A DNA stretch of 64,000 nucleotides from an uncultured Thermoleophilaceae bacterium (GTDB lineage: Bacteria > Actinomycetota > Thermoleophilia > Solirubrobacterales > Thermoleophilaceae), in contig CAVTGV010000003.1 in NCBI GenBank assembly GCA_963734365.1, forward strand, positions 84,794-148,793. Direction: 5' to 3'. Of this stretch, positions 24,420 through 56,125 are shown piece by piece. The first letter of the stretch is position 1; each line of letters starts with the position of its first letter. Under the pieces are notes generated by a model. The model was given only the letters and a program-made list of their open reading frames with translations. It had not been told where the DNA came from and did no database searches. The position numbers and the translations under genes are program-made.

Positions 24420-24932
24420 CTAACCCTCGGTGCCGCCGGCGAACGGGTGGCGCGCCTCGGCCGACTGCTCGATCACGCTGCTGACGGCGGGCTCGCCGCC
24501 CATCGCGCGGGCGATCGACTCCTTGGTGGCCTGGTAGTTCCAGTCGAAGACCTTCTTGTCGTCCTCGGCCAGCCAGTGGATGAAGACGCCGACGATGATG
24601 CAGAGGTCGTCGACCTCGCCCTCGGGGATCACTCCCTCGCTGACCGAGTCGACGACGGCGCGGGCCACGGCCGCCTGGGCGGGCCCGAATATCTGCCCCA
24701 CCTGCTTCTCGCCCTTGATCGTCACCTTGTTGGCCATGATCGTGTCGGGCTTTGCGGGCAGGTTGGGCGCCACCACGGCGAGCAGGTTCGTGTGGCCCTC
24801 CTTCTGGTTCAGGAGAGCGCCGGCGAACGCCTCGCCGACGGGCCCGTCCTTGGATCCGATCAGCAGATCGATGTGAGCAACCTCGTTGCCGTCGCCTACA
24901 AGCGACTCTCCTACGGACAGGGTCCTGGCCAT
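24420..24932 (-). CDS. fae: Formaldehyde-activating enzyme (5,6,7,8-tetrahydromethanopterin hydro-lyase)
   Basis: 170 aa. [20 protein letters not shown]...[13 protein letters not shown]...FGPAQAAVA...VGVFIHW...HPFA matches Fae along its whole length by recall. RBS GAGAGGAG. Confidence 0.95.
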
Positions 24933-25042
24933 GTGTGAGCTCCTCTCTCGGGTCTCCGTGAAGGCGGCGCGAGTCTAGCGCGGCGCGCCGGTTCGGCGCG
25001 GGGCGGGCCGCCGAGCCCTCGCGGGTATGCTCCGGCGCGCGG

Positions 25043-26275: not shown

Positions 26276-26281
26276 CGCCCG

Positions 26282-27925: not shown

Positions 27926-28821
27926 GGCTCAACGACACCGAGGTCGTCGACACCTTCGCGGAGGCGTTCCCGATGTGGGGAGCGCGCATCGTCATCACCG
28001 CCGAGAGCCCCGCCTGGGTGCACGAGGCGGCTCGCTCGATGACCGGCTTCGCCACGTCGGTGATCGGCTGCAAGTGCGAGGCCGGCATCGAGCGCGAGCT
28101 CGATCCCGCCGAGACGCCCGACGGACGGCCCGGGGCCAGCGCGCTGCTGTTCGCAAACGATCGCGAGGGTCTGGCCAAACGACTCGTGGAGCGGATAGGC
28201 CAGAGCGTGCTCACCTGTCCCACCACGGCCTGCTTCAACGGCCTCGACGGCGAGGAGAAGGTCGACGTCGGGGGACAGCTGCGCTTCTTCGGCGACGGCT
28301 ACCAGGCGAGCAAGATGCTCGACGGGCGCCGCTACTGGCGGGTGCCTGTGATGGAGGGCGAGTTCCTTGTCGAGGAGCGCTTCGCCGTGGCCGAGGGGGT
28401 GGCCGGCGGCAACATCATCATCCTCGGCCGGGACGTGGCCGAGGCACTGCACGCGGCCGAGGAGGCGGTGGCGGCGATGCGCGGGGTCCGCGACGTGATC
28501 CTGCCCTTCCCGGGCGGCATCGCTCGCAGCGGCAGCAAGGTCGGCTCCCGCTACAGCAGCCTGATCGCGTCGACCAACGAGGTGCTGTGCCCCACGCTGC
28601 GGGTCCAGGTCGAGGACACCCACGTGCCGCCGGACATCGGCTCGGTGTTCGAGATCATCATCGACGGCCTGAGCTTCGACGCCGTGCGCGAAGCCATGGC
28701 GCGCGGCCTCGAGGCCGCTGCCGGGGCAGGTGCCCGCCAGGTCACGGCCGGCAACTACGGCGGCGACCTGGGCCCACACCACATCGACCTGCGCGGCCTG
28801 GTGCCCGGTATGAGCGACTGA
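27922..28821 (+). CDS. fhcD: Formylmethanofuran--tetrahydromethanopterin formyltransferase
   Basis: 299 aa. DTFAEAFPMWGARIVITA...GFATSVIGCKCEAGIE is typical of Ftr. Its start overlaps the fhcA stop (ATGA). Confidence 0.9.
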   Translation: MRLNDTEVVDTFAEAFPMWGARIVITAESPAWVHEAARSMTGFATSVIGCKCEAGIERELDPAETPDGRPGASALLFANDREGLAKRLVERIGQSVLTCPTTACFNGLDGEEKVDVGGQLRFFGDGYQASKMLDGRRYWRVPVMEGEFLVEERFAVAEGVAGGNIIILGRDVAEALHAAEEAVAAMRGVRDVILPFPGGIARSGSKVGSRYSSLIASTNEVLCPTLRVQVEDTHVPPDIGSVFEIIIDGLSFDAVREAMARGLEAAAGAGARQVTAGNYGGDLGPHHIDLRGLVPGMSD

Positions 28822-29639
28822 TGACGCTGACGCTCACGCTCCGCGAGCAGCCGACGGTGCCGCTCGAGACTGAAGGCCTCACCCCCGACGGCCTGGCGGG
28901 GATGGGCCGCGCCGAGATCGAGGACATGGCGGTCTGGCACGGCAACCGGCGGGCCCGGCTCGGCGACTTCTTCAGCGTCTCGGGCGACGGCGAGGAGGAG
29001 CTGCGGGTGGAGGGCGACCTGCGGCGCGTCAAGTTCGTGGGGGCCGGCATGACCTCCGGCCGGCTCACTGTCGTGGGCGACGCGGGCATGCACACAGGAG
29101 CGGAGATGCGCGGCGGCGAGCTGGTGGTGGAAGGTGACGTGGGCGACTTCGCCGGCACGGCCATGCGAGGCGGCCGGCTCGTGGTGCGGGGCTCCGCCGG
29201 CCACCAGCTCGGCGGCGCGTACCCGGGCGAGCGAGCGGGGATGCGCGGCGGCGAGATCCTGGTCGGTGGCGACGCCGGCGACCAGCTCGGCGCGGGCCTC
29301 CGGCGCGGGCTGATCGCCGTCGCGGGGCGGGTGGGAGACGCCGCGGGGCTGCGCATGCTGGCGGGGACGATCGTCTGCCTCGGCGCGCTCGGGGCCGCGC
29401 CGGGAGCGGACATGCGGCGAGGCACGATCGTGGCGATGACGGAGGTGACGCTGCTGCCGACGTTCGCGCTCGCGTGCTCGTACCGCCCGGCATTCCTGCG
29501 CCTGTACCTGCGCCACCTGCGCGGGTTGGGCCTGCCGCTGGCCGACGAGCAGATCGAGGGTCGCTACGCGCGCTGGAGCGGCGACGGCCTGGAGCTGCGC
29601 CGCGGCGAGATCCTGGTGCTCGAGGCCGCGGGCGGCTGA
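28821..29639 (+). CDS. fhcC: Formyltransferase/hydrolase complex subunit C (FwdC-like)
   Basis: Repeated G-x-x-G-G-x-(L/I)-x-V-x-G-(D/S)-x-G units (MRGGELVVEGDVG, MRGGRLVVRGSAG, MRGGEILVGGDAG). ATG 28821 overlaps the fhcD TGA by 1 nt. Confidence 0.85.
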   Translation: MTLTLTLREQPTVPLETEGLTPDGLAGMGRAEIEDMAVWHGNRRARLGDFFSVSGDGEEELRVEGDLRRVKFVGAGMTSGRLTVVGDAGMHTGAEMRGGELVVEGDVGDFAGTAMRGGRLVVRGSAGHQLGGAYPGERAGMRGGEILVGGDAGDQLGAGLRRGLIAVAGRVGDAAGLRMLAGTIVCLGALGAAPGADMRRGTIVAMTEVTLLPTFALACSYRPAFLRLYLRHLRGLGLPLADEQIEGRYARWSGDGLELRRGEILVLEAAGG

Positions 29640-36822: not shown

Positions 36823-37400
36823 CCGCTGCCCACGGCAGTGTGCACGTGTCGCCGCACGAGCTCCATCGCCTCGTGCTCCCGCGGTCCGGCCGTCTTGTCG
36901 ACGAGCACCTGCAGGCGCTCCAGCTCCGCCCGGATCTCGGAGGCGGGCAGCCGGCGCGCGCGCGAGGCGATGATCGATGCCTCGAGCACCGCATGGCAGG
37001 CGCGGTTGAAGCCGAGGAACTCCCGGCCGGTCCCGCGATCCACGACGTGAGTGGTCACACGGGCGCGCGGCCCGCTCGCGTCGATCGCGTGGACCGTCAC
37101 CTCACGCCACGAGCAGGCATCCGCCAGCACGGCCCCGTCGATCGTCGTTGCGGGCCGCGTGGGCGGGTGCGGATCGCCGAGAGCGGCCTGCGTGAACACC
37201 AGGATGTCGTCTGTGATGTTGACCACCGCCGCCCCCGTGGCCTCGAGGTTGCGCAGCGTGCGCGTGGAGGCGTAGGGCTTGATGACGATCGCGTCGTCTC
37301 CCCACTCCACTCCCATCGCGGCGCAGTTGACCGTCCCGTCCGGGTTGATCGTCGTGGTGACGGTCTCGATGATCGCGGCGCCGGGCAGGCGGTCGCTCAT
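36819..37400 (-). CDS. DUF447 family protein (H4MPT-cluster associated)
   Basis: 193 aa. IIETVTTTINPDGTVNCAAMGV is typical of this family by recall. Overlaps its neighbours by 4 nt on both sides. Confidence 0.65.
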   Translation of the reverse strand: MSDRLPGAAIIETVTTTINPDGTVNCAAMGVEWGDDAIVIKPYASTRTLRNLEATGAAVVNITDDILVFTQAALGDPHPPTRPATTIDGAVLADACSWREVTVHAIDASGPRARVTTHVVDRGTGREFLGFNRACHAVLEASIIASRARRLPASEIRAELERLQVLVDKTAGPREHEAMELVRRHVHTAVGSG

Positions 37401-38347
37401 CCCCGGAAGGACCGCTCGAGCACGCCGATGTCCACGTCCCCGGCGTGAAAGCTACGACCGCTCGCCACGCTCACCAGGCGCACCTCGGCGGGGCTGAAGA
37501 GCAGCGGGTCGATCTTGTAGAAGTCCCAGTCCGCCGCCTCGAGCACGTTGCCGAACGGCTCGCCGTAGTCATCCGAGGCCGAGGACGGGAGGCGGGGCAC
37601 GACCGCCTCGAGCTCCTCATCGGGTGCGTCGACGGTGAGCTCCACCTGGCCGCCGTACAGCACGGCGTCGTTCGTGCGGCCGATCGCCTCGGGGTCCTTG
37701 CGGGCCACGGGCGGCAGCGGGCAGCTCCCGAAGCCGCTCACCACGCGACCCACGTCGAACTCGAGCTCGTGCAGCTTGTGGAGCGCGGTCTCGACCACGC
37801 GGGCGGCGACCTGCACACTGCCTGCCAGGCAGGCGGTTGGAGCGAACAGCAGGGTCAGATCCGCGGCGGCCACGCCCGCCTTCTCGGCCACGAAGCCGGC
37901 GACCTCCTCCGGCGGAGCGTCGCGCGTCTCGAGACACAGCACAGCGTGGCGGGCACTCTCGTCGACCTCGAGATCGTCGTAGAGGTCCTCGGCCCGGATC
38001 AGCGCCCGGCCCGGTCCACTGGCCATCGCGAAGTAGTCCTCGGGGTCCAGACGCCAGCCCGCGTACTGCGAAGCGAGGCAAGCCAGCGCCGGCCTATCGG
38101 TGATGACCGTGAGCCCGGGGAGCCAGCGGCTGTCGAGAACCAGGGGCGCGAACGACACCGTGCCCAGGCCGGCCATGCAGATCTCCGCGAAGCGCCGTCC
38201 GGCCTCCAGTCCGCCCGGGACCGCGCTGCCGCAGTCGATCAGCCGCGTGCCGTTCGGCAACGTGGTCACGGCCACGCGCAGGGCTTCGGCGTCGGCCGCG
38301 AGGCTGTCGGCGAGCTCCTGGGCGCGATCGTTGAGCGAGAGCGTCAC
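37397..38347 (-). CDS. mch: Methenyltetrahydromethanopterin cyclohydrolase
   Basis: 316 aa. LIDCG...GGLEAG, ACLASQYAGW, GRTNDAVLYGG match the Mch pattern by recall. Confidence 0.9.
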   Translation of the reverse strand: MTLSLNDRAQELADSLAADAEALRVAVTTLPNGTRLIDCGSAVPGGLEAGRRFAEICMAGLGTVSFAPLVLDSRWLPGLTVITDRPALACLASQYAGWRLDPEDYFAMASGPGRALIRAEDLYDDLEVDESARHAVLCLETRDAPPEEVAGFVAEKAGVAAADLTLLFAPTACLAGSVQVAARVVETALHKLHELEFDVGRVVSGFGSCPLPPVARKDPEAIGRTNDAVLYGGQVELTVDAPDEELEAVVPRLPSSASDDYGEPFGNVLEAADWDFYKIDPLLFSPAEVRLVSVASGRSFHAGDVDIGVLERSFRG

Positions 38348-41600: not shown

Positions 41601-42974
41601 GTGGCCGAGCGGCTCCTGTTCGTTACCGGCAAGCTCGCCGCGCCGGCGCTCCGCGACACGCTTGACCGGACGGAGCTGCCGTTCGACTACGAGATCGCGG
41701 TCATGAAGATCACGGTGGCCGCGTTGATGACCACCACCTGGATCGCGCGCCGCCTCGAGCCGCCCGAGGCGACCACGAAGATCATGATCCCCGGTCTCTG
41801 CGAGGGCGAGACCGACGTCCTGGCGGAACGCTTCGGCATCCCCGTCGAGAAGGGGCCCGGCGACCTCAAGCGCCTGCCGAGCTGGTTCGGGCAGGCCGAA
41901 GCTCGCGCCAGCTACGGGGCACGCGACATCCGCGTGTTCGCGGAGATCAACCACGTGCCGCGGCTGAGCCGCGATGAGATCCTGGACGTGGCCGGCTACT
42001 ACCGCGAGAGCGGCGCCGACGTGATCGATCTCGGCCTCTCACTCGACCGCCGCTGGCTCGACGAAGGGCCCGAGGTGATCGCCGCGCTGCGCGAACGCGG
42101 CTTCGCGCTCAGCATCGACACGATGGACCGCGACGAGATCCTGATGGCCGACGAGGCGGGCGTGGACTACGTGCTCAGCCTCAACGGGTCGAACCGCGAC
42201 CTCGCCGAGCGCCTGCGTGCCACTCCCGTGCTGATCCCCGACACGCCGGAGGACCTCGACAGCCTCGAGGCCACGATCAACCACCTCGAGCGGCTCGGCA
42301 AGCCCTACATGGTGGACCCGATCATCGAGCCGATCGGCGCCGGCTTCGCCGCCAGCCTCGGGCGCTACCTCGAGGTGCGTCGCCGGCATCCCGAGGCGGA
42401 GATGTTCATGGGGATCGGCAACCTCACCGAGCTCACCGAGGCCGACAGCACCGGGGTCACCGCTCTGCTGATCGGCTTCTGCCAGGAGCTCGGCATTCGC
42501 AACGTCCTAACCACCGAGGTGATCGAGTGGGCGCGGGGCGCCGTGCAGGAGGCGGTGCTCGCTGCCCAGCTCATGCACTTCGCGCACGAGCAGGGCACGC
42601 AGCCCAAGCACGTCGACGGGCGGCTCTTGACGGTCAAGGACGAGGACCTGCGCCCCTATTCGGAAGCCGAGCTGCGCGAGCAGCACGCTCAGGTCACGGA
42701 CCCCAACTTCCGCATCTTCGCCGACGCCGACTGGATCTACGTCTTCAACTCCGAGCTCTTCGTCAAGGGCACCGACTTCAACGAGATCTTCGACCAGCTC
42801 GGGGTCGACGAGGCCACGCACGCCTTCTATCTCGGCAAGGAGCTGATGAAGGCCACGATCGCCCGCGCACTGCGTAAGAACTACCGCCAGGAGTCGCCGC
42901 TCGACTGGGGATATCTGACCTTCGAGGAGCCCCGTCGCAAGCGCGTCCGAGTGACAACGCGGCCAAGAAAGTAG
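41601..42974 (+). CDS. Dihydropteroate-synthase-like pterin-binding protein of methanopterin biosynthesis
   Basis: 457 aa. The central pterin-binding barrel (GADVIDLG...SIDT...VLSLNG) has N- and C-terminal extensions, as in the H4MPT-type DHPS homologues. GTG start. Confidence 0.75.
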   Translation: MAERLLFVTGKLAAPALRDTLDRTELPFDYEIAVMKITVAALMTTTWIARRLEPPEATTKIMIPGLCEGETDVLAERFGIPVEKGPGDLKRLPSWFGQAEARASYGARDIRVFAEINHVPRLSRDEILDVAGYYRESGADVIDLGLSLDRRWLDEGPEVIAALRERGFALSIDTMDRDEILMADEAGVDYVLSLNGSNRDLAERLRATPVLIPDTPEDLDSLEATINHLERLGKPYMVDPIIEPIGAGFAASLGRYLEVRRRHPEAEMFMGIGNLTELTEADSTGVTALLIGFCQELGIRNVLTTEVIEWARGAVQEAVLAAQLMHFAHEQGTQPKHVDGRLLTVKDEDLRPYSEAELREQHAQVTDPNFRIFADADWIYVFNSELFVKGTDFNEIFDQLGVDEATHAFYLGKELMKATIARALRKNYRQESPLDWGYLTFEEPRRKRVRVTTRPRK

Positions 42975-43017: not shown

Positions 43018-43455
43018 GTGGCGACTGCCGAAGAGCTTCTGAGCAAGCAGAATGGCGCAACGCTAGGCCGAGTACTCGGGCGGGGAACCGTCGGAGAGGC
43101 GGAGGAGGGATCCGCCGGCACGATGACTGCCACCGTGCGGATCCCGGAGGACGAGCTCGTGTACGAGCCCGGGGTCCTAGTCCTGCCGCATGGGGGCGTG
43201 CTCGAGCTCACGCTCATCAACGACGACAAGAACACTCACTGCGCTGTCTTGCCGAGCAATGGCGACACCCAGTTCCTCTGGCTGGTCAACCATTCGAAGG
43301 GCACGGCCACTCTCGAGCTCGACGGACCGGGGTACTACTGGTACGGCTCCACGACCGGCAACGACGAGGGGCGCGGACTGACCGGAGCCATCGTCGTGCA
43401 AGGGGACGTACCGGACGAGGCTCGCCTCGACCGCCCGCCCCAACCCCAACCGTAG
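43018..43455 (+). CDS. Small cupredoxin-like beta-sandwich protein adjacent to the PQQ dehydrogenase; canonical copper ligands not evident
   Basis: Strong SD AAAGGGAGGG before GTG 43018 (the tracked start 42979 has poor codon usage). Fold hint VLELTLINDDKNTHCAVLP...GYYWYGSTTGNDEGRGLTGAIVVQG. Confidence 0.5.
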   Translation: MATAEELLSKQNGATLGRVLGRGTVGEAEEGSAGTMTATVRIPEDELVYEPGVLVLPHGGVLELTLINDDKNTHCAVLPSNGDTQFLWLVNHSKGTATLELDGPGYYWYGSTTGNDEGRGLTGAIVVQGDVPDEARLDRPPQPQP

Positions 43456-43491
43456 ACCGCCCGCCACGCACCCCATCGGAAGGAGCACTCG

Positions 43492-45187
43492 ATGGCAACT
43501 GAGTACGTAGACGCAGGATCTGCCATCCCCTACGCGACCCTGAGCACCTCGGTCGGCAAGGCCCCGCCGGTGACCAAGGGCGTCAACTACGAGCGGATCG
43601 TCAATGCTCGTGATGAACCGCAGAACTGGCTGACCTACTACGGCGCCTACAACGGGCAGCGCTACAGCCCGCTCGACCAGATCAACGCGAGCAACGTCGG
43701 GCAAATCACTCCTCAGTGGGTGTTTCAGGCCGGCAACACCGGCCTGCGCTCGGGCGCGACGACCTACGCGTGGGAGGCCTCGCCGATCATCGTGGACGGG
43801 GTCATGTACGTCTCCGGCTGGGACGGCCAGCTGTGGGCGCTCGACGCGACGAACGGCCAGGAGCTGTGGCGCTACAGGCACGCGTCCCCGTTCGACGTGT
43901 CGCTGTGCTGCGGCAACGTCAACCGCGGGGTTGCCGTAGCCGAGGGCAAGGTCTTCATGACCACCCTGAACGCCCACATCATCGCGCTCGACGCCGAGAC
44001 CGGCAAGAAGATCTGGGACAAGCCCTTCGGCGATGTGCGGGCCGGCGAGAGCGCCACCGTCGCTCCCCTGGTCGTGAAGGACATGGTCATCGTCGGAAGC
44101 TCCGGCGGCGAGTTCGGGGTGCGCGGCCACACCGACGCGTTCAATCGCGAGACCGGGGAGCACGTCTGGCGCTGCTACATGATCCCGAAGCCCGGGGAGC
44201 CGGGCTCCGAGACCTGGCCCGCAGACGGCGAGGCCTGGCAGCGGGGCGGGGCGAACTGCTGGATCACGCCCAGCTACGACCCGGACCTGAACCTCCTCTA
44301 CTACGGGACCGGCAATCCGTGTCCGGACTTCGACGGAGGGGTCCGCGAGGGCGACAACCTATTCACCGATTCCGGTGTCGCCGTGGACGCCGACACCGGC
44401 GAGATCAAGGCGCACTTCCAGTACACCCCGCACGACCTGTGGGACTACGACTCCGTCGATGGAGCACCTCCTGTTCGACCTCGATGGGCAGAAGCTGGCC
44501 GCCCACTTCGACAAGAACGGGTTCCTCTACATCCTGGATCGCACGGACATGTCCGCGGTCCGGGTGGTGCCGTTCGTCGATCGCATCGACTGGGGCGAGG
44601 TCGACGAGAAGGGCAACGTGACGCCGAAGGTCTACCCCGACAAGGAGGGCGACCCGGTGCACTTCTGGCCGGGCCCGGCGGGCGCCAAGGAGTGGACGCA
44701 CGCCTGCTACAGCCCGGATACCGAGCTCCTGTACGTCCCTGTGCAGGACGTGGGCGCGACGGCCACGCGGCGGCGCAGGGAGTTCAAGGAGAGCATCCCG
44801 TACTGGGGCGCCGGCGTCGCCGTTGACGCCGACGACCAGACCGGTTACGTGAGCGCCTACGACCCGCGCACAGGCCAGGAGCGCTGGCGCTGGACCAGCC
44901 CGAAGGACCTGTGCATGTGCTCGTCGCTGCTGGCCACGGGCGGCGGCCTCGTTTTCGGGGGCGAGCCCAGCGGGGAGTTCAACGCGTGGAACGCCGAGAG
45001 CGGTGACCTGCTGTGGCAGTTCCAGTGCGGCAGTGGGCACCACTCGAGCCCGTCGACCTACAGCGTCGACGGACGCCAGTACATCGTCGCGCCGAGCGGC
45101 TGGGGCGGTTGGGCCGAGGGCTTCCTGCCCAAGATGCTCGGGTCGGGCCACGGCAGCGCGCTGTTCGCGTTCGCCCTGCCCGAGTAG
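43492..45187 (+). pseudogene. PQQ-dependent alcohol dehydrogenase, methanol/ethanol family, with a D-Y-D lanthanide-type signature; frameshifted near 44452-44460
   Basis: RBS GGAAGGAG. NWLTYYGAYNGQRYSPL, vicinal SLCCGNVNRG, GNPCPDF...GDNLFTDS, TPHDLWDYDSV. Continues in another frame as EHLLFDLDGQKLAAHFDKNGFLYILDR... Confidence 0.9.
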
Positions 45188-45325: not shown

Positions 45326-45997
45326 ATGATCGGCACGCTGCTGCTCGTGGGGATCACCCTCAGCTTGGACAACTTCCGGACCGCGCTCGCGCTCGGGGCG
45401 CTTCGGCTCACCCGGCGCCGCGCCCTGCACGTCGCCCTGGTGTTCGGGTTCTGGGATGGCGTCGCACCGAAGACGTGCTGGGGCGAGTCGAGGGCCCTCG
45501 GTGGGGATACTGATCGCGGCGCCGGTGACTATCGCCGGCAATTGCGACAGGACCGCCATCCCGAGGCTCGGCCAGCCCGGGTACCTGAGCCCCGTGCCGA
45601 ACGGCATCATGGCGGCAACGGCCTCCTGCCGGTCAGGCGCGGCGTCTGCGTCGAGCTTTGGGCTCCCTCGTAGCTAGGGGCGTACGGGCTGTATCTCATC
45701 ATTCACGCTTGGCTAACACCGGCGGAGGAGCTGGACGAGCGATGGGCGCTGTTTGGCCTTCCTCTGCCGCTGAGCCTCGACAACGTGGTCGCTGGCACCA
45801 GCCTGGGCTTACTTGGGTACTCGCCCTGGCTCGCGCCCCCGCTCTTCGGCGCTATCACTTTCCTGATGACGTTCGTCGGGTTGGAGCTGGGGAAAGCAGC
45901 CACCCGCTTCATACACATCCGGGCCGATCTCCTGACGGGCGTGGCGCTCATCATCGTGGCGGTTGTTGGAGGACTAGGGCTGGACGGGTTGCATTAG
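45326..45997 (+). pseudogene. mntP: MntP-like (DUF204) manganese efflux pump, central region disrupted
   Basis: The first half-repeat LSLDNFRTALALGA...VFGFWDGVAP and the second PLSLDNVVAGTSLGLLG...FVGLELG are in the same frame. About 200 nt of non-membrane-like sequence with an in-frame TAG (45671) separates them. Confidence 0.5.
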
Positions 45998-46027
45998 GGT
46001 GGAAGGCCGAACAGCGCCGATCATCCG

Positions 46028-46639
46028 TCAGCCGTCGGCACCATCGACCGCGCGCAGGGCGGGCCAGGCGTCCGAGGCGGACTCGTCGAGCTCCGCGGAC
46101 AGGGCTTCGCTCTCGAAACGGGCGAGCGCCTCCTCGCACGACGCGACGGCTGTGGCGGCTTCCTCGCCCCCGGGCGCCTCGAAGTAGTCGCGCGCGCGGA
46201 TCGCGGCGAGCCACTTCTGGTGGCGGGCAAGGTCGACGTCGGACTCCTCGAGCTCGGTATATGTCGCCCGGCCGCGGCGGCGCTCCTGCTCGAGCTCCTC
46301 GTGAAACTGCCGCGTGCTCTCGATCAGCTCGCGGTACTCGTCGGCCCGCTCGCGCTGCATCGAGTCGATGACCCCGGCCTCCTGCCTTGCATCTGTCAGC
46401 TGGATGCGAAGCATCTCGCCGCGGCCGTCCTCCGCGCGCAGGCGCGTCACGAGCCGCGTCGTGGCCCGCGTGGTCTTCGGCGTGGCCGGGAGCACGCACA
46501 CCGATTGCTGGAGGTAGTGGGCGCCGAGGCGGCGCAGGTTGCGCCAGGCGTAGACGCGCAGCGTCGACGATGCGCCGCCCGGCGTGGAGACCGTGATCAG
46601 CAGCCAGTCGCGTGCCAACGTAGGACCATGATTCCACAC
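46028..46639 (-). CDS. ChrB N-terminal-domain-like protein
   Basis: DWLLITVSTPGGASSTLRVYAWRNLRRLGAHYLQQSVCVLP resembles the ChrB N-terminal domain by recall. Start uncertain (GTG 46639, ATG 46672 or ATG 46681). Confidence 0.55.
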   Translation of the reverse strand: MWNHGPTLARDWLLITVSTPGGASSTLRVYAWRNLRRLGAHYLQQSVCVLPATPKTTRATTRLVTRLRAEDGRGEMLRIQLTDARQEAGVIDSMQRERADEYRELIESTRQFHEELEQERRRGRATYTELEESDVDLARHQKWLAAIRARDYFEAPGGEEAATAVASCEEALARFESEALSAELDESASDAWPALRAVDGADG

Positions 46640-46679
46640 GCACGCTTCGCGGTTGCGCGGTCGACGTATCATTCGTTTC

Positions 46680-49203
46680 ATGGCGAGCGCAACGCCGGCG
46701 TCGCGTCCCGCCGATGGGGCGCCGGCTGTCCCGGTCCACGCAGAGCCGCTCGCGGCCCTGTGGGAGCGGACCGGCAGTCGCCCGGGCGGACTGACGCCCG
46801 AGGAGGTCGAGCAGCGGCGCGGCACAGCGGCGGTGCGGACCGAGGGCAGCCAGACCATGGCGGTTCTCGGGGAGCTGGTCGAGTCGGTCGTGGAGCCCCT
46901 CCAGCTGCTGCTGGTAGCGGTCGGCGTGCTCTCGGCGATCTTCGGGGAGCTGCGCGACGCGATCGCGATCTTCGCGATCATCGCGCTGGTCAGCGCCGTC
47001 GAGGCGATCTCCGAGGTGCGGGCGAAGCGCGCGCTTCGGGCGCTGCGCGACCTCAGCGCCCCCAACGCGCTCGTCCGGCGCGCGGGCACCGTGGCCGCAG
47101 TTCCGGTCGACGCGCTCGTCATCGGCGACGTGCTGCTCGTCGAGGCCGGCAGCGTGGTGGCCGCCGATGCCCGCGTCGTCGAGGCCGACGGCCTGGCCAC
47201 GGACGAGTCGCGGCTGACGGGCGAGCCTGTGGCGGCTGCCAAGGGACCCGAGCCGGTCGCTGCCGACGCGCCGCTCGCCGAGCGGTCCTCGGTGCTCTAC
47301 GCCGGCAGCGCCGTCGTGTCCGGAGCCGGCGAGGGTGTCGTGGTCGCGGTGGGGCCGGACACCGAGATCGGGCGTCTCGGGCGACTTGTCGCGGAGGCCA
47401 GGGAGCCGCCCACGCCGCTTCAACGCGCGATGGCGGAGCTGGCGCGTGCGGCGCTCATCGTGGCCGTTACCGCATGCGTGGTCGTGCCGCTCATCGGCGT
47501 GCTCCGCGGCCAGCCCGCACGCGAGATGCTGCTCGACGGGCTGACGCTCGCGTTCGCCACGATCCCCGAGGAGCTGCCGATCCTCGTCACCGTGCTGGTG
47601 GCGATCGGCGGCCTGCGCCTGGCGCAGCGGGGTGTTCTTCTCCGGCGGCTGCGCGCCGCCGAGGCCGTCGGCGCGATGACCGTGCTGCTCGCCGACAAGA
47701 CCGGGACGCTGACCGAGAACCGGCTGCTGATCGAGCGCATCGACGGCGACCGCGAGCACGTGCTGACCGTCGCCGCCGCGGCGCACGGGGCGGCGGCCGC
47801 ACAGGACCCGGTTGATCGCGCGCTGGCGGACGCCGCCGGCGAACGAGCGTCGAGCGAGCGGCCGGCGCGGAATCCGTTCGACCCGGTGCGCCGGCGCGAG
47901 AGCGCGGTGTGGCGGGAGGCCGACGGCGCCTGGGTGGCCGTGAAGGGCGCGCCGGAGGCCGTGCTGGAGGCGTGCGCGATGTCCGAGGCGGACCGCGCAG
48001 CCGTGCTCGAGCGCGTCGGGCGGCTCGCAGACGACGGGTTACGGGTCATCGCCGTGGCGGAGCGTCGCGTCGCCGCGGTTCCGGGCGATGCCGCCGACGC
48101 CGAGACCGACCTCGCATTCGTGGGTCTGGCCGCCTTCCGCGATCCGTTGCGCCCCGGGGTGCGCGAGGCCGTGGCCGAACTCGCCCATGCGGGCGTGCGG
48201 ACGATCGTCGTCAGCGGCGACCACCCCGAGACGGTCGCCGCGACCGCGCGCGAGGCGGGGGTCAACGAGTTCCAACGTCATGCACGGCGGCGCGCCCCTC
48301 GCCGCGCTCGACGACGACGAGCTCGCTGAGCGGCTGCGTGGCGAGGCCGTCATCGCCCGTGCCACGCCCGAGGACAAGCTGCGGCTCGTCAGCGTCCTGC
48401 AGGACAGAGGAGAGGCCGTCGCGGTCACCGGCGATGGCGTCAACGACGCACCCGCTCTCGCCGCGGCGAACGTCGGCATCGCGATGGGCGCGCGCGGGAC
48501 CGATCTCGCCCGCGAGGCGTCCGATCTCGTGCTCGTCGACGACGCCTACCCGACGATCGTCGGCGCCGTCGAGGGCGGTCGCGGCCTCGCCTCCCAGCTC
48601 CGGCGTGCGGTCGCGTTCTACCTCGGCGCCAAGGTCGCGCTCATCGTGGTCGTCGCCGTGCCGCTGGTGCTGGGGCTCCCCGCCCCGTTCCACCCGGTCC
48701 ACATCGTCATCCTGGAGCTGTTCATGGACGTCGGCGCGTCGGTGGCCTTCGTCTCCGAGCCACCGGCGCCGGGCGCCATGGACCAGCCCCCGCGCGATCC
48801 TGCGCGCCGGTTCCTCGACGACACGCAACTGTCCGCCATCGCGCTCACGGCCGTGGCGCTCACGGCCGCGGTCCTTCCGACGTTCCTCCTCGTCGAGGCG
48901 CGGTGGGGCACCGACATGGCGATCGCCGCCGCCGTGGCCGGTTGGCTCGTCGCGAACGTGGCGATCGCGTGGACGCTGCGCGCCCGGCCGGGTCTGGCCT
49001 GGCGGAGCAACGTCGCGTTCCCGGCGTGGGCGCTGATCGCCGTCGCCAGCGCGGTGATGCTGTCCCTCACCGCGGCCGGGGCCACGCTCGGCGTGGACCC
49101 GCTGACCGCCCGAGCGGCCGGTATCACGGTCGGCGTCGCGGCGGCCGGGGTCGCCCTCGCCGCCGCAGGACGCGTCGCGCTGTCGCTCTCCCGGCGTCTC
49201 TGA
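46680..49203 (+). pseudogene. Cation-transporting P-type ATPase (P2-like), frameshifted near 48262-48278
   Basis: DKTGTLTEN phosphorylation motif in the first frame. [11 protein letters not shown] and C-terminal TM helices in the second frame (tracked ORF 48088..49203). Confidence 0.85.
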
Positions 49204-49447: not shown

Positions 49448-49522
49448 ATGAAGTGGATCAAGCCTGAGTTCGAGATCATCGACCTCTGCACCGAGGTCAC
49501 CCTCTACCTCTACAACCGGTAG
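49448..49522 (+). CDS. pqqA: PQQ precursor peptide PqqA (24 aa): MKWIKPEFEIIDLCTEVTLYLYNR
   Basis: Not in the ORF track. GGGAG RBS about 7 nt before the ATG. Conserved E-x-x-x-Y (EVTLY) and (K/W)KP N-terminus. Lies immediately upstream of pqqB. Confidence 0.85.
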   Translation: MKWIKPEFEIIDLCTEVTLYLYNR

Positions 49523-49564: not shown

Positions 49565-50475
49565 GTGGTGCCACACGTGCGAGTTCGAATTCTGGGCTCG
49601 GCCGCCGGCGGGGGATTTCCGCAATGGAACTGCCATTGCGAGACGTGTGAGGCCGCGCGCGTCGGTGAACGCGCGCGCCCTCGTACGCAGTCGTCGCTGG
49701 CGATCCGCGGTGACGAGGGGCCATGGTTTCTCGTCAACGCCTCACCCGACGCGCGCCAGCAGCTCGAGGCGCTCCCAGCTCGTGAGCTGAACGGCGTCCG
49801 GGTCCCGCCGGTCAGCGGCGTGCTGCTGACGGATGCGGAGATCGACCACACGGCAGGGCTTCTGCTCCTGCGGGAGTCGCAGGCGCCGGTGCGGATATTC
49901 GGCGCCGAGGGCGTCGAGCACGCGCTGCAGGAGCGGCTTTCCCGTGCTGGAGATCCTGGAGCGCTACTGCGGCGCCGAGTGGCAGACGCTCGAGCCGGAG
50001 CGGGCGAGGCAGCTCGAGGGGTCGAGCCTCACGGTCGAGCCGTTCGAGACGGGCGGCGACGCGCCGCGCTACCTGGACGGGCTCGGACGCCCAGCTTCAG
50101 GCCAGCGGGTTCGTCTTCCGTGACGGCGGGAGCGGCGGCGTCGTGACCTACGTCCCCGGTCTCGCCCGGCTGGACGACGGCGTGCTCAGCCGGCTCGCCG
50201 CGTCCGACGTCGTGCTCGTCGACGGCACCTTCTGGCGCAACGACGAGCTCGCCCGGCTCGGCATCTCGACGCGCAGCGCCCGCGACATGGGACACCTGCC
50301 GCTCTCCGGGCCCGACGGGACGCTCGCGGCGCTCGAGCGGCTCGAGCGACCGCGCAAGGTGCTCGTCCACATCAACAACACGAACCCGATCCTGCTCGAG
50401 GACTCCCCCGAGCGGGAGGCGGTCCGAGGCGCGGGCGTGGAAGTTGCCTACGATGGCCTCGAGATCGAGCTATGA
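49565..50475 (+). pseudogene. pqqB: PqqB (metallo-beta-lactamase fold), with two frameshifts (about 49930-49942 and about 50070-50090)
   Basis: RILGSAAGGGFPQWNCHC in frame 2. FPVLEILERYCGAEWQTL...APRYLDG in frame 0. ASGFVFRDGGSGGVVTYVPGL...HINNTNPIL...VAYDGLEIEL in frame 1. Confidence 0.85.
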
Positions 50476-51212
50476 CGGAAATCGCCACCAAGCTCACGAC
50501 CGGCGAGCGCGCGCCATGGCCGCCCGAGGAGTTCGTCGCGCAGCTGCGCGCGCAGGGGACGCGCTACCACAACCTGCACCCCTTCCACAGGCGGATGGAC
50601 GCCGGCGAGCTCACGCGCGAGGAGCTGCAGCGCTGGGTCGCGAACCGCTTCTACTACCAGAAGTGCATCCCGCTGAAGGACGCGGCGATCCTGTCGAACT
50701 GCCCAGAGATCGAGGTACGGCGGGAGTGGATCGGGCGCATCATCGACCACGACGGCACGAGCGACGGAACGGGCGGCATCGAGTCGTGGCTGCGGCTCGG
50801 CGAGGCGCTCGGCGTCTCGCGGGAAGAACTGGTCTCGGAGCGGCGCGTGCTGCCGGCGGTGCGCTACGCGGTCGACGCCTACGTGAACTTCGCGCGCCAG
50901 AAGCCGTGGATCGAGGCGGTCGCGTCCTCGCTCACCGAGCTCTTCGGTCCGGCCGCGATCCGCGTGCGGCTGGAGGCGCTCGAGCGGCACTACGAGTGGA
51001 TCGACCCCGCCGGGCTCGAGTACTTCCGCGCGCGGCTCGTGCAGGCTCCACGCGACGCCCAGTACGCACTCGACCTCACCGTCGACCGCTGCCGGACGCG
51101 GGAGCAGCAGGAGGCCGCCGTGGCCGCGCTCCGGTTCAAGACGGAGATGCTGTGGGCCCAGCTCGAGGCAATCGAACGCGGCGACACGCAGCCGCCGGGG
51201 CCGGACGCTTGA
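50472..51212 (+). CDS. pqqC: Pyrroloquinoline-quinone synthase PqqC
   Basis: 246 aa. HPFHRRMDAGELTREELQRWVANRFYYQ...NCPEIEVRREWI is typical of PqqC. Overlaps the pqqB stop. Confidence 0.95.
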   Translation: MTEIATKLTTGERAPWPPEEFVAQLRAQGTRYHNLHPFHRRMDAGELTREELQRWVANRFYYQKCIPLKDAAILSNCPEIEVRREWIGRIIDHDGTSDGTGGIESWLRLGEALGVSREELVSERRVLPAVRYAVDAYVNFARQKPWIEAVASSLTELFGPAAIRVRLEALERHYEWIDPAGLEYFRARLVQAPRDAQYALDLTVDRCRTREQQEAAVAALRFKTEMLWAQLEAIERGDTQPPGPDA

Positions 51213-51472
51213 CCGGCCCTCGCCTGGCCACCGGCGCGCGGCTGCAGTACGACGACGTGCGCGAGGAGCACCTGCTGCTGGTGCCGGAGGGCGCCGTGCG
51301 GCTAAACCCCACCGCAGCGGCCGTGCTCGAGCTGTGCGACGGGGAGCGCTCGGTCGACGAGATCGCGAGCACCCTCGCGGAGCGCTACGAGGGCTCGGAT
51401 CTGCGTGGTGACGTCCAGGAGCTGGTCGAGGGCCTGGCCCAGAAAGGACTCGTGGTCGATGGATCAGCCTAG
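51209..51472 (+). CDS. pqqD: PqqD (PqqA-binding chaperone)
   Basis: ARLQYDDVREEHLLLVPEGAVRLNPTAAAVLELCDGERSVDEI. TTG 51209 overlaps the pqqC stop (CTTGA). Confidence 0.8.
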   Translation: MTGPRLATGARLQYDDVREEHLLLVPEGAVRLNPTAAAVLELCDGERSVDEIASTLAERYEGSDLRGDVQELVEGLAQKGLVVDGSA

Positions 51473-52556
51473 GCCCGCCACGCTGATCGCCGAGCTCTCC
51501 TACCAGTGCCCGCTGCACTGCCCGTACTGCTCGAACCCGCTCGACATCGGCCACGAGAAGTATCGCCAGGAGCTCGAGACCGAGCACTGGACTCGCACCT
51601 TCCGGGAGGCGCGCGCGCTCGGCGTGCTGCAGCTCGCGCTCACGGGCGGCGAGCCGATGCTGCGCCGCGATCTGGCCGAGCTCTGCTCGGGCGCGCGCGA
51701 CGCCGGTCTCTACTCATCGCTCATCACCGCCGGGGTCAACTTCACGCGCGAGCGTGGCGAGGTGCTGAAGGCGGCCGGGCTCGACCATGTGCAGATCTCG
51801 ATCCAGAGCCCGGACGCCGAGGAGAACGACCGCATCGCCGGCAACCGGTCGTTCGAGAAGAAGATCGCGGCCGCGCGCGTCGTGAAGGAGCTCGACTTCC
51901 CGCTCACGATCAACTGCGTGCTGCACCGGCAGAATCTCGACCGGATCGAGGAGATACTCGAGCTCGCGCTCGAGCTCGGGGCGCAGCGACTCGAGCTTGC
52001 GAACACGCAGTACTACGGCTGGGCGGTGGCCAACCAGGATGCGCTGATGCCGTCCTGGGAGCAGCTCCAGCGCGCGGAGGAGGCGGTCCAGCGCTTCCGC
52101 GAGCGGGTCGGCCCCAAGGTGGACGTCCTCTGGGTGCTCCCCGACTTCTACGAGGATCTACCCAAGCCGTGCATGGGCGGGTGGGGGCGAACGGCGATAG
52201 TCGTCGCTCCGAACGGCGAGGTGCTGCCCTGCCAGGCGGCGTCGACGATCCCGGGGCTCGAGTTCGCCAACGTCCGCGAGCATCCGCTTGAGTGGATCTG
52301 GAACGAGTCCGACGCGTTCATGCGCTTCAGGGGCACGGACTGGATGCAGGAGCCGTGCCGCACGTGCCCGCTCGGACGCCAGGAGGTGGACTTCGGCGGC
52401 TGCCGCTGCCAGGCGCTGCGGCTGACGGGCGACGCCGCCGCCACGGACCCGGTGTGCCGGTTCTCGCCGCATCACGACCGCGTCGTCTCGGCACGCGAGT
52501 CGGCGCAGACCGACGAGTTCGTCTATCGCGCGATCACGCGGCCGGTGCGCGCCTGA
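51459..52556 (+). CDS. pqqE: PqqE radical SAM/SPASM enzyme
   Basis: CPLHCPYC radical SAM cluster motif and a Cys-rich SPASM C-terminus (CRTCPLGRQEVDFGGCRCQA). ATG 51459. Confidence 0.9.
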   Translation: MDQPRPATLIAELSYQCPLHCPYCSNPLDIGHEKYRQELETEHWTRTFREARALGVLQLALTGGEPMLRRDLAELCSGARDAGLYSSLITAGVNFTRERGEVLKAAGLDHVQISIQSPDAEENDRIAGNRSFEKKIAAARVVKELDFPLTINCVLHRQNLDRIEEILELALELGAQRLELANTQYYGWAVANQDALMPSWEQLQRAEEAVQRFRERVGPKVDVLWVLPDFYEDLPKPCMGGWGRTAIVVAPNGEVLPCQAASTIPGLEFANVREHPLEWIWNESDAFMRFRGTDWMQEPCRTCPLGRQEVDFGGCRCQALRLTGDAAATDPVCRFSPHHDRVVSARESAQTDEFVYRAITRPVRA

Positions 52557-53409
52557 CGGCTCGCTCCGCCGTCCCGTGCGGCTCGATGAGCCCGACCGCG
52601 ACGAGCCGATGGTGACACGCGTCCGCGATGTACTCCCGAGTCTCATCAGGGAGTACATCGCCCCAGGCTGCGGCGGCCTCGTCGGCGCGCGCCAGCAGCT
52701 CGTCGAGGAGCTCCCGAGACGGCTGGGCCTCGATCAGGCAGCGCAGGCCGAAGCCGACGTGCCAGCGCTCGTCGAGCTCGACGCGCGCGACACCCTCGCG
52801 CACCCCCGGCAGGGCGTCGTCGGCCAAGTCGATGCGCAGCGCGTGATGCGCGGCGTCGAAGATGATCCCCTCGAGCACCATGTGGTAGAGCGAGACGCCC
52901 TCGCCCAACCCGATGCGACCGGCGGCCAGCTCGGCTGCCATGGCGGGCAGCCGCTCTTCGAAGAGCTCGAGCACAGCGGGCGGGACGTAGGCCCGCGCCG
53001 CTTCGCGCCGCTCCGCGGGGGTGTCTCCGGGCAGCCCGAGTACCTCGGCGGCGATCCGGTCGAACCAAAGCGCATGGCGGTCCTCGTCGCGGCGCTGTAG
53101 GAAGAAGACCCAGGCCATCAGGCTCTCGTGGGAGGCCAAGGTCGCCTCCCTGGCCACGTCTGCGAACGGCGTGATGTGCTCGGAGACCGCGTCCTCGGCC
53201 ACGCGGAAGCCGGCGAAAAGAGTCATGAGAAGGCGGCGACGTTCAGCCGGCAGCTCCGGCCACGCGCGCGCATCTTCGGTGAGGTCGATGGTCGCCGGGT
53301 CCCACTGCAGGCGCGCGACGACCTTGGAAAAGAACTGGGGCCAGAAGGTGCGCCTCGGGAGGACGAAGTGCCCGCCCAGCGTGCTCTCCCAGAGCTGCCC
53401 GTCAGCCAT
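52534..53409 (-). CDS. Ferritin-like diiron protein, ribonucleotide reductase R2-like family
   Basis: Two ExxH motifs (DEDRH, DERWH) plus YHMVLEG. ATG 53409 (MADGQLW). Confidence 0.65.
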   Translation of the reverse strand: MADGQLWESTLGGHFVLPRRTFWPQFFSKVVARLQWDPATIDLTEDARAWPELPAERRRLLMTLFAGFRVAEDAVSEHITPFADVAREATLASHESLMAWVFFLQRRDEDRHALWFDRIAAEVLGLPGDTPAERREAARAYVPPAVLELFEERLPAMAAELAAGRIGLGEGVSLYHMVLEGIIFDAAHHALRIDLADDALPGVREGVARVELDERWHVGFGLRCLIEAQPSRELLDELLARADEAAAAWGDVLPDETREYIADACHHRLVAVGLIEPHGTAERAVRRAPAA

Positions 53410-53679
53410 AGGCTCGAAAGGGTATCCACCCGCCGTTTGGGACCAACCGCTCGTGCGATGGCCTTGAGCTCCGCCCGATATCGTTGGCTGGGCGCATGAC
53501 CGAGCGAAGCGCGCTTCTCGGCAGCGACGTCCAGGCGCGGCGCCCGTCGACCCAGCTGAGACGATCCACAAGCACACGGTGGTGGCCGAGCGCCACGGCC
53601 TGTTCGGCGACCTGCGCCACGAAGTCGCCTTCGGGCGAGCGGATGAGCCGCCACGTTACGAAGCGCGAGTGGCTCGAGG

Positions 53680-54749: not shown

Positions 54750-54750
54750 A

Positions 54751-54824
54751 TCGGGCTGACTGGATTTGAACCAGCGACCTCTCCGACCCGAACGGAGCGC
54801 GCTACCAGGCTGCGCCACAGCCCG
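54751..54824 (-). tRNA. tRNA-Pro (anticodon CGG)
   Basis: Hand-folded cloverleaf: acceptor CGGGCTG/CAGCCCG, D arm GCGC-AGCCTGGTA-GCGC, anticodon arm CTCCG-TTCGGGT-CGGAG, T arm GCTGG-TTCAAAT-CCAGT. CCA is not encoded. Confidence 0.9.
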
Positions 54825-54898
54825 AGCGCCACACACTAGCGGTAGCTGGCGCGTTCAACCTGCGCGGGCCGGCGGGTCGATTGCCATACTCAGGCTGC

Positions 54899-56125
54899 GT
54901 GAGGTACCGCCGGTACGGAATCGCCGTGGCGCTGTCCGTTGCTGCTCTGATCGCGGGCTGCTCCTCGGATGACGAGGAGCGCGCGGCCGCTCCGCCTGCC
55001 GCCACCAGCACTCAGAGCGGGGGATCGGATGGGGGCTCGGAAGGGCAGTCTGCCGCCCGCCGCCAGGTTCGCCTGCTGCGGCTCGGGAGCTTCTCCGAGC
55101 CCACATATCTGACCGCTCCGCGCGGTGACAGGCGCCGCTTCGTGGTGGAGCGCAGCGGCCGGATATTGATCGTGAAGGGCGGCCGGGTGCTCGACGAGCC
55201 CTTCCTCGACATGTCGGGTGAAGTCAGCACCGGCGGCGAAAGCGGCCTGCTGTCGATGGCCTTTGCTCCGGACTACGCCCAGTCGCGGCGCTTCTACGTC
55301 TACTACACCGATCAGCAGGGCTACATCAACATCGCCCAGTACCAGGGTGAGGCCGGCAACCCGGACCGCGCCGACGCCGGCAGCAGGCGGACCGTGATCC
55401 GCGTGCCCCACCGGCGCTCCAACCACAAGGGTGGCCAGATCCAGTTCGGCCCCGACGGCCGGCTCTACGCGGGCTTCGGCGACGGTGGCGGAGGCGGGGA
55501 TCCAGATGAGAACGCCCAGAACCTCTCGCGCATGCTCGGCAAGCTCATCCGGATAGAGCCCAAGGCGGGCGGTGGGTACTCGATCCCGCGGAGCAACCCG
55601 TTCCGCAATCGCTCGGGCGCTCGCCCGGAAGTGTTCGCGTACGGGCTACGCAACCCCTATCGGTTCTCGTTCGACCGTCGCAGCGGCGCGCTCACCATCG
55701 GCGATGTCGGCCAGGATGCGGTGGAGGAGATCGACTACACACCGGGGCGCGGCCGCACGCGCGCGCCGCGTGCGGGCGAGAACTTCGGTTGGGACGTGTG
55801 GGAGGGCCGCAGCCGCTACGAGGGCGGCACGGCGCGCGGCTACGTGCCTCCTGCGATCGCCCACTCCCAGGACGGCGGTTACTGCTCGATCATCGGCGGC
55901 TACGTGATCCGCGACCGTGCGCTCGGGCGCGGCTGGAACGGCCGCTACGTGTACGGCGACTACTGCAACCCGGTGATCCGCCTCGCCCGTCTGCGACGCG
56001 GCAAGAGCGCCAACCGCGCAACCCGTCTGCGCGTGCCGGGCCTGGTCTCGTTCGGCGAGGACGGCCAGGGGCGCGTGTACGCGATCTCGCTCAACGGGCC
56101 GGTCTACCGCCTCGGCGTTCGCTGA
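54899..56125 (+). CDS. PQQ-dependent sugar (glucose/sorbosone) dehydrogenase family beta-propeller lipoprotein
   Basis: Lipobox LIAGC after RYRRYGIAVALSVAA. Motifs GLLSMAFAPDY, HKGGQIQFGPDGRLY, FAYGLRNPYRFSFD. The start could be TTG 54881. Confidence 0.85.
   Translation: MRYRRYGIAVALSVAALIAGCSSDDEERAAAPPAATSTQSGGSDGGSEGQSAARRQVRLLRLGSFSEPTYLTAPRGDRRRFVVERSGRILIVKGGRVLDEPFLDMSGEVSTGGESGLLSMAFAPDYAQSRRFYVYYTDQQGYINIAQYQGEAGNPDRADAGSRRTVIRVPHRRSNHKGGQIQFGPDGRLYAGFGDGGGGGDPDENAQNLSRMLGKLIRIEPKAGGGYSIPRSNPFRNRSGARPEVFAYGLRNPYRFSFDRRSGALTIGDVGQDAVEEIDYTPGRGRTRAPRAGENFGWDVWEGRSRYEGGTARGYVPPAIAHSQDGGYCSIIGGYVIRDRALGRGWNGRYVYGDYCNPVIRLARLRRGKSANRATRLRVPGLVSFGEDGQGRVYAISLNGPVYRLGVR

Follow-up and report, generated by a model that had tools for sequence, protein, structure and literature searches.

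The window, meaning here the whole stretch of 64,000 nucleotides analysed (71.6% G+C), is part of contig CAVTGV010000003.1 from an uncultured Thermoleophilaceae bacterium (assembly GCA_963734365.1, positions 84,794 to 148,793). Its bases 43492-45187 are a genuine gene for a pyrroloquinoline quinone (PQQ) alcohol dehydrogenase, preceded directly by the gene of a small PQQ-associated protein, called the partner below. The features of this pair are:

43018-43455, plus strand: MSMEG_3727-family PQQ-associated protein of 145 residues (longest open reading frame from 42979), directly upstream of the dehydrogenase
43478-43485, plus strand: Shine-Dalgarno sequence GGAAGGAG, 6 nt before ATG 43492
43492-44457, plus strand: PQQ alcohol dehydrogenase, codons 1-322, with the signal-less N-terminus MATEYVDAG...
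43906-43911, plus strand: codons of the vicinal cysteines C139-C140
44110-44112, plus strand: codon of E207, metal ligand by the PedH register
44314-44316, plus strand: codon of N275, metal ligand by the PedH register
44443-44445, plus strand: codon of D318, catalytic Asp
44449-44451, plus strand: codon of D320, lanthanide-marker Asp
44457-44458, plus strand: single extra base (GTCG, against GTG in relatives) causing a +1 shift, at a non-homopolymer, non-slippery site
44459-45187, plus strand: PQQ alcohol dehydrogenase, codons 323-564 and stop, 99% identical to the intact relative P0001
45207-45234, plus strand: perfect 12-bp G+C hairpin, 20 nt after the dehydrogenase stop, terminator-like, with the U tract absent

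The 564-residue dehydrogenase is read from two plus-strand frames, 43492-44457 and 44459-45187, and ends at the stop codon 45185-45187. Third-position G+C changes frame at about 44450, supporting a real reading frame across both; the minus-strand open reading frames over the gene have no codon-bias support and are shadows of the high G+C content. The product matches PF01011 (E = 5.7e-84) and TIGR03075, the methanol/ethanol-family PQQ dehydrogenases, with 590 bits against a cut-off of 480. It stays below the cut-off for TIGR04528 (acido-empty-quinoprotein group A), at 405 bits against 650. The strings NWLTYYGAYNGQRYSPL, SLCCGNVNRG and TPHDLWDYDSV, quoted in the initial annotation, are all found in it. 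The start is fixed at ATG 43492 because of the ribosome-binding site GGAAGGAG and an in-frame TAG (43453-43455), the stop of the upstream gene, 36 nt 5' of this ATG. No ATG, GTG or TTG lies between that TAG and the ATG.

At least 580 loci were obtained when one genome of each GTDB species was scanned. Of these, the 80 best were retained and, with contig L001 from ENA, make up 81 loci; counts over 82 sequences refer to the window protein plus these 81 relatives, the window's own genome being outside the locus set. The dehydrogenases of the 81 loci share 68-99% identity with the window protein. Apart from one locus, on a 4-kb contig binned as Acidobacteriaceae, all belong to Actinomycetota. Hosts are Thermoleophilaceae and Solirubrobacterales metagenome-assembled genomes (MAGs), Candidatus Solirubrobacter pratensis, Geodermatophilus, Rubrobacteraceae, Streptomyces, Pseudonocardia, Amycolatopsis, Saccharopolyspora, Actinomycetospora and others; more than 100 clusters of metagenome proteins, 76-98% identical, belong to the clade as well. 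The closest relative is P0001 on contig L001, with 98% amino-acid and 97% nucleotide identity, and the best relative from the genome collection is locus L002 (MFD09267.bin.2.216), with 86-96% nucleotide identity over the aligned blocks. Among 50%-identity representatives, the full-length members of the clade collapse to essentially one level; the full-length protein that comes next, P0242, has 58% identity and the rest at most 45%. The clade is a distinct one, confined almost entirely to Actinomycetota. Databases already contain the family, but no characterisation of it came to light.

The dehydrogenase is made without a Sec, Tat or lipoprotein signal, as a property of the whole clade and not an accident of annotation. 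Its first 29 residues, MATEYVDAGSAIPYATLSTSVGKAPPVTK, have neither a hydrophobic core nor a twin-arginine, and the same holds for the N-terminal 45 residues. The N-terminus M(A)T(E)YVDAG...LS...G.APPV...V.YERI is common to all 81 related genes, each preceded by the same ribosome-binding site, and its maximum 10-residue Kyte-Doolittle hydropathy is at most 1.6 at these loci. This signal-less set spans Thermoleophilia and cultured Streptomyces, Pseudonocardia, Amycolatopsis and Geodermatophilus. The lack of a signal peptide, claimed at the outset, is therefore borne out; the in-frame stop, together with the ribosome-binding site and the conserved start of the relatives, rules out a longer N-terminus hiding one. 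Among more distant representatives (36-58% identity), all eight inspected bear Sec or lipoprotein signals. Within the window, a GSDH-family protein at 54881-56125 (plus strand; six-bladed PQQ type, of the soluble glucose/sorbosone dehydrogenase kind) bears the lipobox LIAGC (VAALIAGC) and is a putative second, exported PQQ enzyme of the neighbourhood. The missing signal is thus not a quirk of export marking in this genome.

The upstream partner belongs to the same family as MSMEG_3727 (TIGR04339, 249 bits against a cut-off of 75; PF23509, E = 3.5e-74). Its gene stands directly upstream of the dehydrogenase in 80 of the 81 loci, beginning 420-580 nt before it, and in the lone locus without it the dehydrogenase gene lies at a contig end. 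The window's partner protein has no signal peptide, and an exact look-up of this gene product gave no match. Its AlphaFold model, built with a 35-sequence alignment, reaches a predicted local distance difference test (pLDDT) score of 76 and has a cupredoxin fold, with auracyanin, CuA domains and CupA as Foldseek matches; the single-sequence model (pLDDT 44) was uninformative. The type-1 copper ligands are missing from the window's partner: its loop GSTTGNDEGRGL aligns with GCPVANHAGRGM of an exported homologue, with Cys replaced by Ser, His by Asp and Met by Leu, so that copper-based electron transfer is doubtful. Instead, NDDxN(T/S)HC and GNDEG(R/G)G loops, which read NDDxNTHC and GNDEGRG in the window, are encoded by almost all of the 80 partner genes recovered from actinobacteria.

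Comparison with exported relatives suggests where the pair comes from. P0242 starts with MNRIGNFAARAGLLWGLVAGC, a lipoprotein signal, followed by a region homologous to the N-terminal extension of the actinobacterial proteins; the other seven distant representatives inspected all have Sec-type signals. The gene upstream on P0242's contig encodes a TIGR04339 member (155 bits) with the lipobox AILLASC and the canonical type-1 copper pattern, a His and then GCPVANHAGRGM (H...C-x4-H-x4-M). At locus L082 of the sister lineage (2469-4816; JGI metagenome 3300037193, about 70% G+C) both proteins are lipoproteins, and the cupredoxin retains a canonical blue-copper site. Six of the eight signal-bearing homologues, P0242 included, have a pair of cysteines 29 residues apart; these positions are Trp/Tyr/Phe and Gly in all 82 clade members. 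The median Cys count is 9 in clade proteins, against 4 in most mature exported homologues. The loss of both signals, of the structural Cys pair and of the copper site, together with the raised Cys content, points to a relocation of the dehydrogenase and its partner from the outside into the cytoplasm. The initial annotation had offered a choice between a cytoplasmic enzyme and non-classical export: the shared losses of the pair and the lipoproteins of the outgroup favour its first branch, the location itself being judged from sequence features.

Among solved structures, the best relative is PedH of Pseudomonas putida (6zcv/6zcw; E = 3.5e-107, residues 30-563 aligned), followed in order by quinohaemoprotein alcohol dehydrogenase (ADH) IIB, XoxF and ExaA. 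The register with PedH is free of gaps around the frameshift, TPHDLWDYDSVMEHLLFD facing TPHDGWDFDGVNELISFN (WDYDSVMEH/WDFDGVNEL). At the marker position the enzymes read as follows:

Window protein (metal: -): W-D-Y-D (W-D-Y-D-S)
PedH (6zcv; lanthanide): W-D-F-D (W-D-F-D-G)
XoxF (6dam, 7o6z; lanthanide): W-D-Y-D (W-D-Y-D-G)
ExaA (1flg; Ca): W-D-F-S (W-D-F-S-G)
ADH IIB (1kv9; Ca): W-D-F-T

D320 is thus homologous to the lanthanide-marker Asp, because the W-D-x-D column matches PedH D325 and XoxF, while the Ca enzymes have Ser or Thr there; the proposed homology of the second Asp holds against both the PedH and the XoxF structures. The PedH ligands E199, N281, D323 and D325 correspond to E207 (in GGEFGVRG), N275 (in GTGNPCP), D318 and D320 of the window protein. 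Two ligand contexts proposed earlier have to be corrected: VRAGESATVAPLVV ('VRAGES'), taken for that of the Glu, faces a PedH Tyr, and 'GGANCW', taken for that of the Asn, faces a PedH Ala. The window protein further shows the quinoprotein hallmarks of vicinal Cys-Cys, PQQ-stacking W257, catalytic D318 and conserved R350. C139-C140, E207, W257, N275, D318 and D320 are invariant in 82 of 82 sequences, and R350 is present in 81, the window protein included. By this alignment the enzyme carries the lanthanide-type ligand set of Glu, Asn, Asp and the extra Asp, and it may use a lanthanide. An extra metal cluster built from C256, C277, C476 and C512 was considered and rejected: these cysteines are not conserved over the 82 sequences, C277 occurring in only 39.

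The frameshift that the initial annotation placed at 44452-44460 exists and consists of a single extra base, at 44457/44458. P0001 has TCCGT-GATGG in place of the window's TCCGTCGATGG, and this is the sole gap against this closest relative. When aligned to the window, the open reading frames of 74 relatives change frame at 44455-44459; the gene is intact in all 81. The 242 codons past the shift are 99% identical to P0001, and the ratio of synonymous to nonsynonymous differences there, 12:2 against L001 and 20:3 against L002, follows the pattern seen 5' of the shift; selection past it is still purifying. Programmed frameshifting does not apply: GAC TCC GTC G ATG holds no slippery heptamer, and all 81 relatives read straight through.

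Other genes of the window are broken in the same way. Window-specific single-base frameshifts occur in a CitG-like gene near 39766 (28 supporting open reading frames), in a P-type ATPase near 48262 and twice in pqqB, near 49930 and 50081; in the latter two genes they are confirmed by halves of Pfam domains that lie in different frames. A further break, probably near 45470, is suggested by Pfam domain halves in different frames in an MntP-like gene (45326-45997). The sites checked base by base are single inserted bases outside homopolymers. At least four other single-base frameshifts, in three other genes, thus lie within about 11 kb, an indel density of about one per 2 kb. Contig L001 has different breaks of its own, in a DHPS-like (dihydropteroate-synthase-like) gene and in pqqE; frameshifts in the window's pqqE, suggested by the L001 gene call, were discarded, as Pfam shows the window frame intact and that of L001 broken. 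The frameshift in the dehydrogenase is most probably an uncorrected assembly error, and the organism itself would have an intact gene. Uncorrected indel errors seem to be present in the assembly, and pseudogene calls in the window therefore need caution.

The pair is followed by the genes for PQQ synthesis and preceded by an island of one-carbon genes linked to tetrahydromethanopterin (H4MPT):

23529-24419, minus strand: MtdB-like protein
24420-24974, minus strand: Fae
24962-26275, plus strand: FhcB
26276-27925, plus strand: FhcA
27865-28821, plus strand: FhcD
28818-29636, plus strand: FhcC
37397-38347, minus strand: methenyl-H4MPT cyclohydrolase (Mch)
41601-42974, plus strand: DUF6513 and dihydropteroate-synthase-like protein (H4MPT-biosynthesis type), directly upstream of the pair
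49448-49522, plus strand: pqqA, MKWIKPEFEIIDLCTEVTLYLYNR, with an E-x3-Y motif
49565-50472, plus strand: pqqB, with two frameshifts
50472-51212, plus strand: pqqC
about 51296-51466, plus strand: pqqD
51405-52556, plus strand: pqqE, intact

The window holds a complete H4MPT/methanofuran-linked formaldehyde oxidation module. The other genes of the island (21077-42974) encode GS-III-like, DUF1464, PabAB, RimK-like ligase, TIGR03123, amino-acid kinase, MfnB-like, DUF447, ATP-grasp, CitG-like, short-chain dehydrogenase/reductase (SDR), pterin-4a dehydratase and DHPS-like proteins. Downstream of the dehydrogenase, pqqC and pqqE are found in about 49 of the 81 loci, and about 28 Solirubrobacterales loci have H4MPT-biosynthesis genes upstream of the pair. 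The cassette of Streptomyces, Pseudonocardia, Amycolatopsis and others is limited to partner, dehydrogenase and pqq genes, and H4MPT genes are missing from its surroundings. In the whole window, stop-free stretches of at least 60 codons are free of CxxCH motifs, and a Pfam scan of about 45 translated stretches from the 18.5-59.2 kb part showed no xoxG- or xoxJ-type family, in agreement with the earlier remark that neither an xoxG-type cytochrome c nor xoxJ adjoins the gene. Near position 17180 of L002, about 1 kb is absent relative to window positions 50335-51346 (the end of pqqB and the complete pqqC), by deletion or mis-assembly. Between dehydrogenase and pqqA, the window has a 4-kb insert (45326-49203; L002 counterpart 13586-16372) with the MntP-like gene and a P2-type cation ATPase. 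This ATPase is closest to PMR1-type Ca2+ pumps, under all cut-offs, and has a homologue within 10 kb of the dehydrogenase in 6 of the 81 loci; it is a candidate Ca2+/lanthanide transporter.

A cytoplasmic, lanthanide-dependent PQQ alcohol dehydrogenase is the best-supported reading of the locus, and we hold it, as a combined statement, to be somewhat better than an even proposition. The eight-bladed dehydrogenase would fold and work in the cytoplasm, with PQQ supplied by the adjoining pqqABCDE genes and with an imported lanthanide. PQQ and the trivalent lanthanide would be bound, by homology, through E207, N275, D318 and D320. Methanol or another small alcohol would be oxidised in the cytoplasm; in this Thermoleophilia genome the reaction is presumably that of methanol to formaldehyde, which, as the gene content suggests, would be captured by Fae and oxidised via MtdB, Mch and Fhc. 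A stable-isotope study of the rhizosphere, in which 13C-methanol labelled Solirubrobacteraceae, is consistent with this formaldehyde route (PMC9258066). Electrons may leave via the cupredoxin-like partner or with its aid. In the exported sister lineage the partner would be a blue-copper acceptor; in actinobacteria its copper ligands appear to have been exchanged for a site rich in Asp, Asn and Glu, and it may now be either a docking or redox adaptor or a metal (lanthanide) chaperone.

Several points weigh against such an enzyme. The PQQ alcohol dehydrogenases characterised so far are, to our knowledge, all located outside the cytoplasm. In known enzymes a disulfide joins the vicinal cysteines, and the invariant C139-C140 would tend to be reduced inside the cell. 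The PQQH2 couple is too oxidising for the reduction of menaquinone, and no high-potential cytoplasmic acceptor is evident once the partner's copper site is lost. The Asp-x-Asp motif is a predictor of lanthanide use, not a proof. By bit score the sequence is closer to ethanol dehydrogenases of the PedH/ExaF type than to XoxF; because of this likeness, and because most actinobacterial genera have no adjoining H4MPT genes, methanol may not be the general substrate. As pqqB is broken twice, decay of the strain's whole PQQ system is conceivable. Finally, we found in the literature no characterisation of the clade and no experiment on any of its members, with earlier mention in subscription papers possible.

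Each of the three assumptions behind the cytoplasmic lanthanide enzyme, that the gene is alive, that it works inside the cell and that it uses a lanthanide, has its rival. The gene might be a real pseudogene in a strain that lost PQQ-dependent alcohol oxidation, with the frameshifts in the dehydrogenase and in pqqB both real. This would take the extra base as it stands in the given sequence, together with the two in pqqB, and it would fit the apparent lack in L002 of the stretch holding pqqC. However, like single-base insertions are scattered over unrelated genes within about 11 kb (CitG-like, P-type ATPase and probably MntP-like), the L001 contig shows its own distinct set of breaks, and the codons past the shift are conserved and still weighted towards synonymous differences. 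Moreover, the closest relatives are mostly MAGs with MFD identifiers, which, from their names only, we take to be long-read assemblies. The dead gene that the initial annotation had foreseen as one outcome is thus distinctly unlikely.

The gene being intact, both proteins could still act outside the membrane, through export without a classical N-terminal signal (for example of SecA2 type, with MATEYVDAG as a novel signal, or by lysis), and keep the classical PQQ chemistry. Here the invariance of Cys139-Cys140 in all 82 sequences, as where the pair forms a disulfide, speaks for the outside, as do the well-conserved N-terminal 29 residues (M1, A2, T3, Y5, V6, D7, A8 and G9 are invariant in alignment A1) and the lipoprotein GSDH-family enzyme, which implies that PQQ presumably gets there. 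The characterised relatives are also all periplasmic (PMC10875860). But both partners lost their signals jointly, none of the 82 sequences retains the second Cys pair found in exported homologues, the partner's copper site is lost, and the Cys content is high and often odd; the N-terminal extension has its homologue in the mature part of lipoprotein P0242, hence is not obviously a targeting signal, and the operon has no conserved transporter. We consider export unlikely. It is also conceivable that the enzyme is cytoplasmic and PQQ-dependent yet works with Ca2+ or another metal, or on a substrate other than a one-carbon compound (an aldehyde, ethanol or an alcohol from secondary metabolism). 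Neither the Asp-x-Asp motif nor the H4MPT context would then be diagnostic. The highest similarities are indeed to ethanol-type enzymes (PedH 363 bits and ADH IIB 309, against 288, 274 and 248 for XoxF structures and about 248 for MxaF), and the cassettes of Streptomyces, Pseudonocardia and Amycolatopsis stand apart from H4MPT genes. Mycolicibacterium smegmatis failed to grow on methanol and needed mycofactocin, not PQQ, for growth on ethanol (PMC6529628). Against this stand the four lanthanide-type ligands, invariant over 82 sequences, the Ser or Thr that solved Ca-dependent relatives have in place of the marker Asp, and the roughly 28 Solirubrobacterales loci with the pair directly after H4MPT-biosynthesis genes; another metal or substrate is very unlikely.

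With PedH/ExaF-type enzymes, the window protein shares the eight-bladed PQQ propeller, the vicinal Cys-Cys, the Glu/Asn/Asp/Asp ligands in register and W-D-x-D. PedH is periplasmic and made with a Sec signal, whereas the window protein has 29 non-hydrophobic residues instead; its clade is further set apart by the absence of the second Cys pair of most exported homologues examined, by several loop deletions and by the cupredoxin-like partner. The system of XoxF, XoxG (cytochrome cL) and XoxJ resembles the window in its W-D-Y-D (6dam, 7o6z) and in its linkage to PQQ synthesis and the H4MPT pathway, as in methylotrophs. It differs in that the window protein is less similar to XoxF (288 bits) than to PedH, has no signal and a partner of cupredoxin fold, and that xoxG, xoxJ and CxxCH were not found in the 64 kb. 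Blue copper proteins accept electrons from quinoproteins, as amicyanin does from methylamine dehydrogenase and azurin from ADH IIB of P. putida HK5. The partner shares their cupredoxin fold, and that of the exported sister lineage retains His/Cys/His/Met; actinobacterial partners have Ser/Asp/Leu and the invariant NDDxN(T/S)HC and GNDEG loops.

A described system of the same kind is the MSMEG_3721-3727 cassette of M. smegmatis, which has a TIGR04339 partner and a TIGR03075 dehydrogenase followed by pqq genes. That cassette is known from bioinformatics only, and the window's version lies inside an H4MPT/methanofuran island. The view of the gene as a Gram-positive orphan was mistaken: its partner lies upstream, and TIGRFAMs/NCBIfam already has a model for family and cassette (TIGR04339), which Haft pointed out in 2011, describing MSMEG_3726 as the only PQQ alcohol dehydrogenase of M. 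smegmatis, within the pqq cassette (PMC3023750). A 2019 paper notes MSMEG_3721-3727 and finds PQQ to be no substitute for mycofactocin in ethanol growth (PMC6529628). XoxF has been called periplasmic, hence unexpected in Gram-positives, in a 2024 study (PMC10875860); a review of the same year leaves Gram-positives unmentioned and regards the need for rare earths in the cytoplasm as unknown (PMC11845868). In the literature we found nothing on the localisation of the family, its lanthanide signature, or the cupredoxin nature and lost copper site of the partner.

Lanthanide biology has so far been built on periplasmic Gram-negative enzymes, and this clade, very common in soil, pairs lanthanide ligands with a clade-wide loss of all export features. 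We put forward, tentatively and at slightly less than even chances, that the Actinomycetota clade as a whole (Streptomyces, Pseudonocardia, Geodermatophilus, Thermoleophilia and, by family name, M. smegmatis) runs cytoplasmic PQQ/lanthanide alcohol oxidation, with a dehydrogenase stripped of its signal and structural disulfide and a cupredoxin re-tooled to an acidic, possibly lanthanide-binding site. If so, the clade would provide the first PQQ alcohol dehydrogenase to work in the cytoplasm and the first lanthanide enzyme from monoderm bacteria, extending lanthanide use to them, Streptomyces included. It would also give cytoplasmic lanthanide a function, as the first enzymatic reason for its presence there, and raise the redox question of what accepts PQQH2 electrons in a menaquinone-only cytoplasm. 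In Thermoleophilia, the link to Fae and H4MPT nominates abundant soil Solirubrobacterales as methanol oxidisers. Since the family occurs in cultured, genetically tractable strains, the readings of localisation and metal are directly testable.

Two further genes lie downstream of the pqq operon. The only RNA gene that Rfam detected in the window is a tRNA-Pro (CGG) at 54750-54825 on the minus strand, and a reading of the 13.5-18.5 kb stretch, with its weaker codon bias, as rRNA was dropped on this result. A gene for an R2-like ligand-binding oxidase-like protein (ferritin-like, di-metal; 52534-53577, minus strand) is convergent with pqqE, and a homologue lies within 10 kb of the dehydrogenase in 22 of the 81 related loci.

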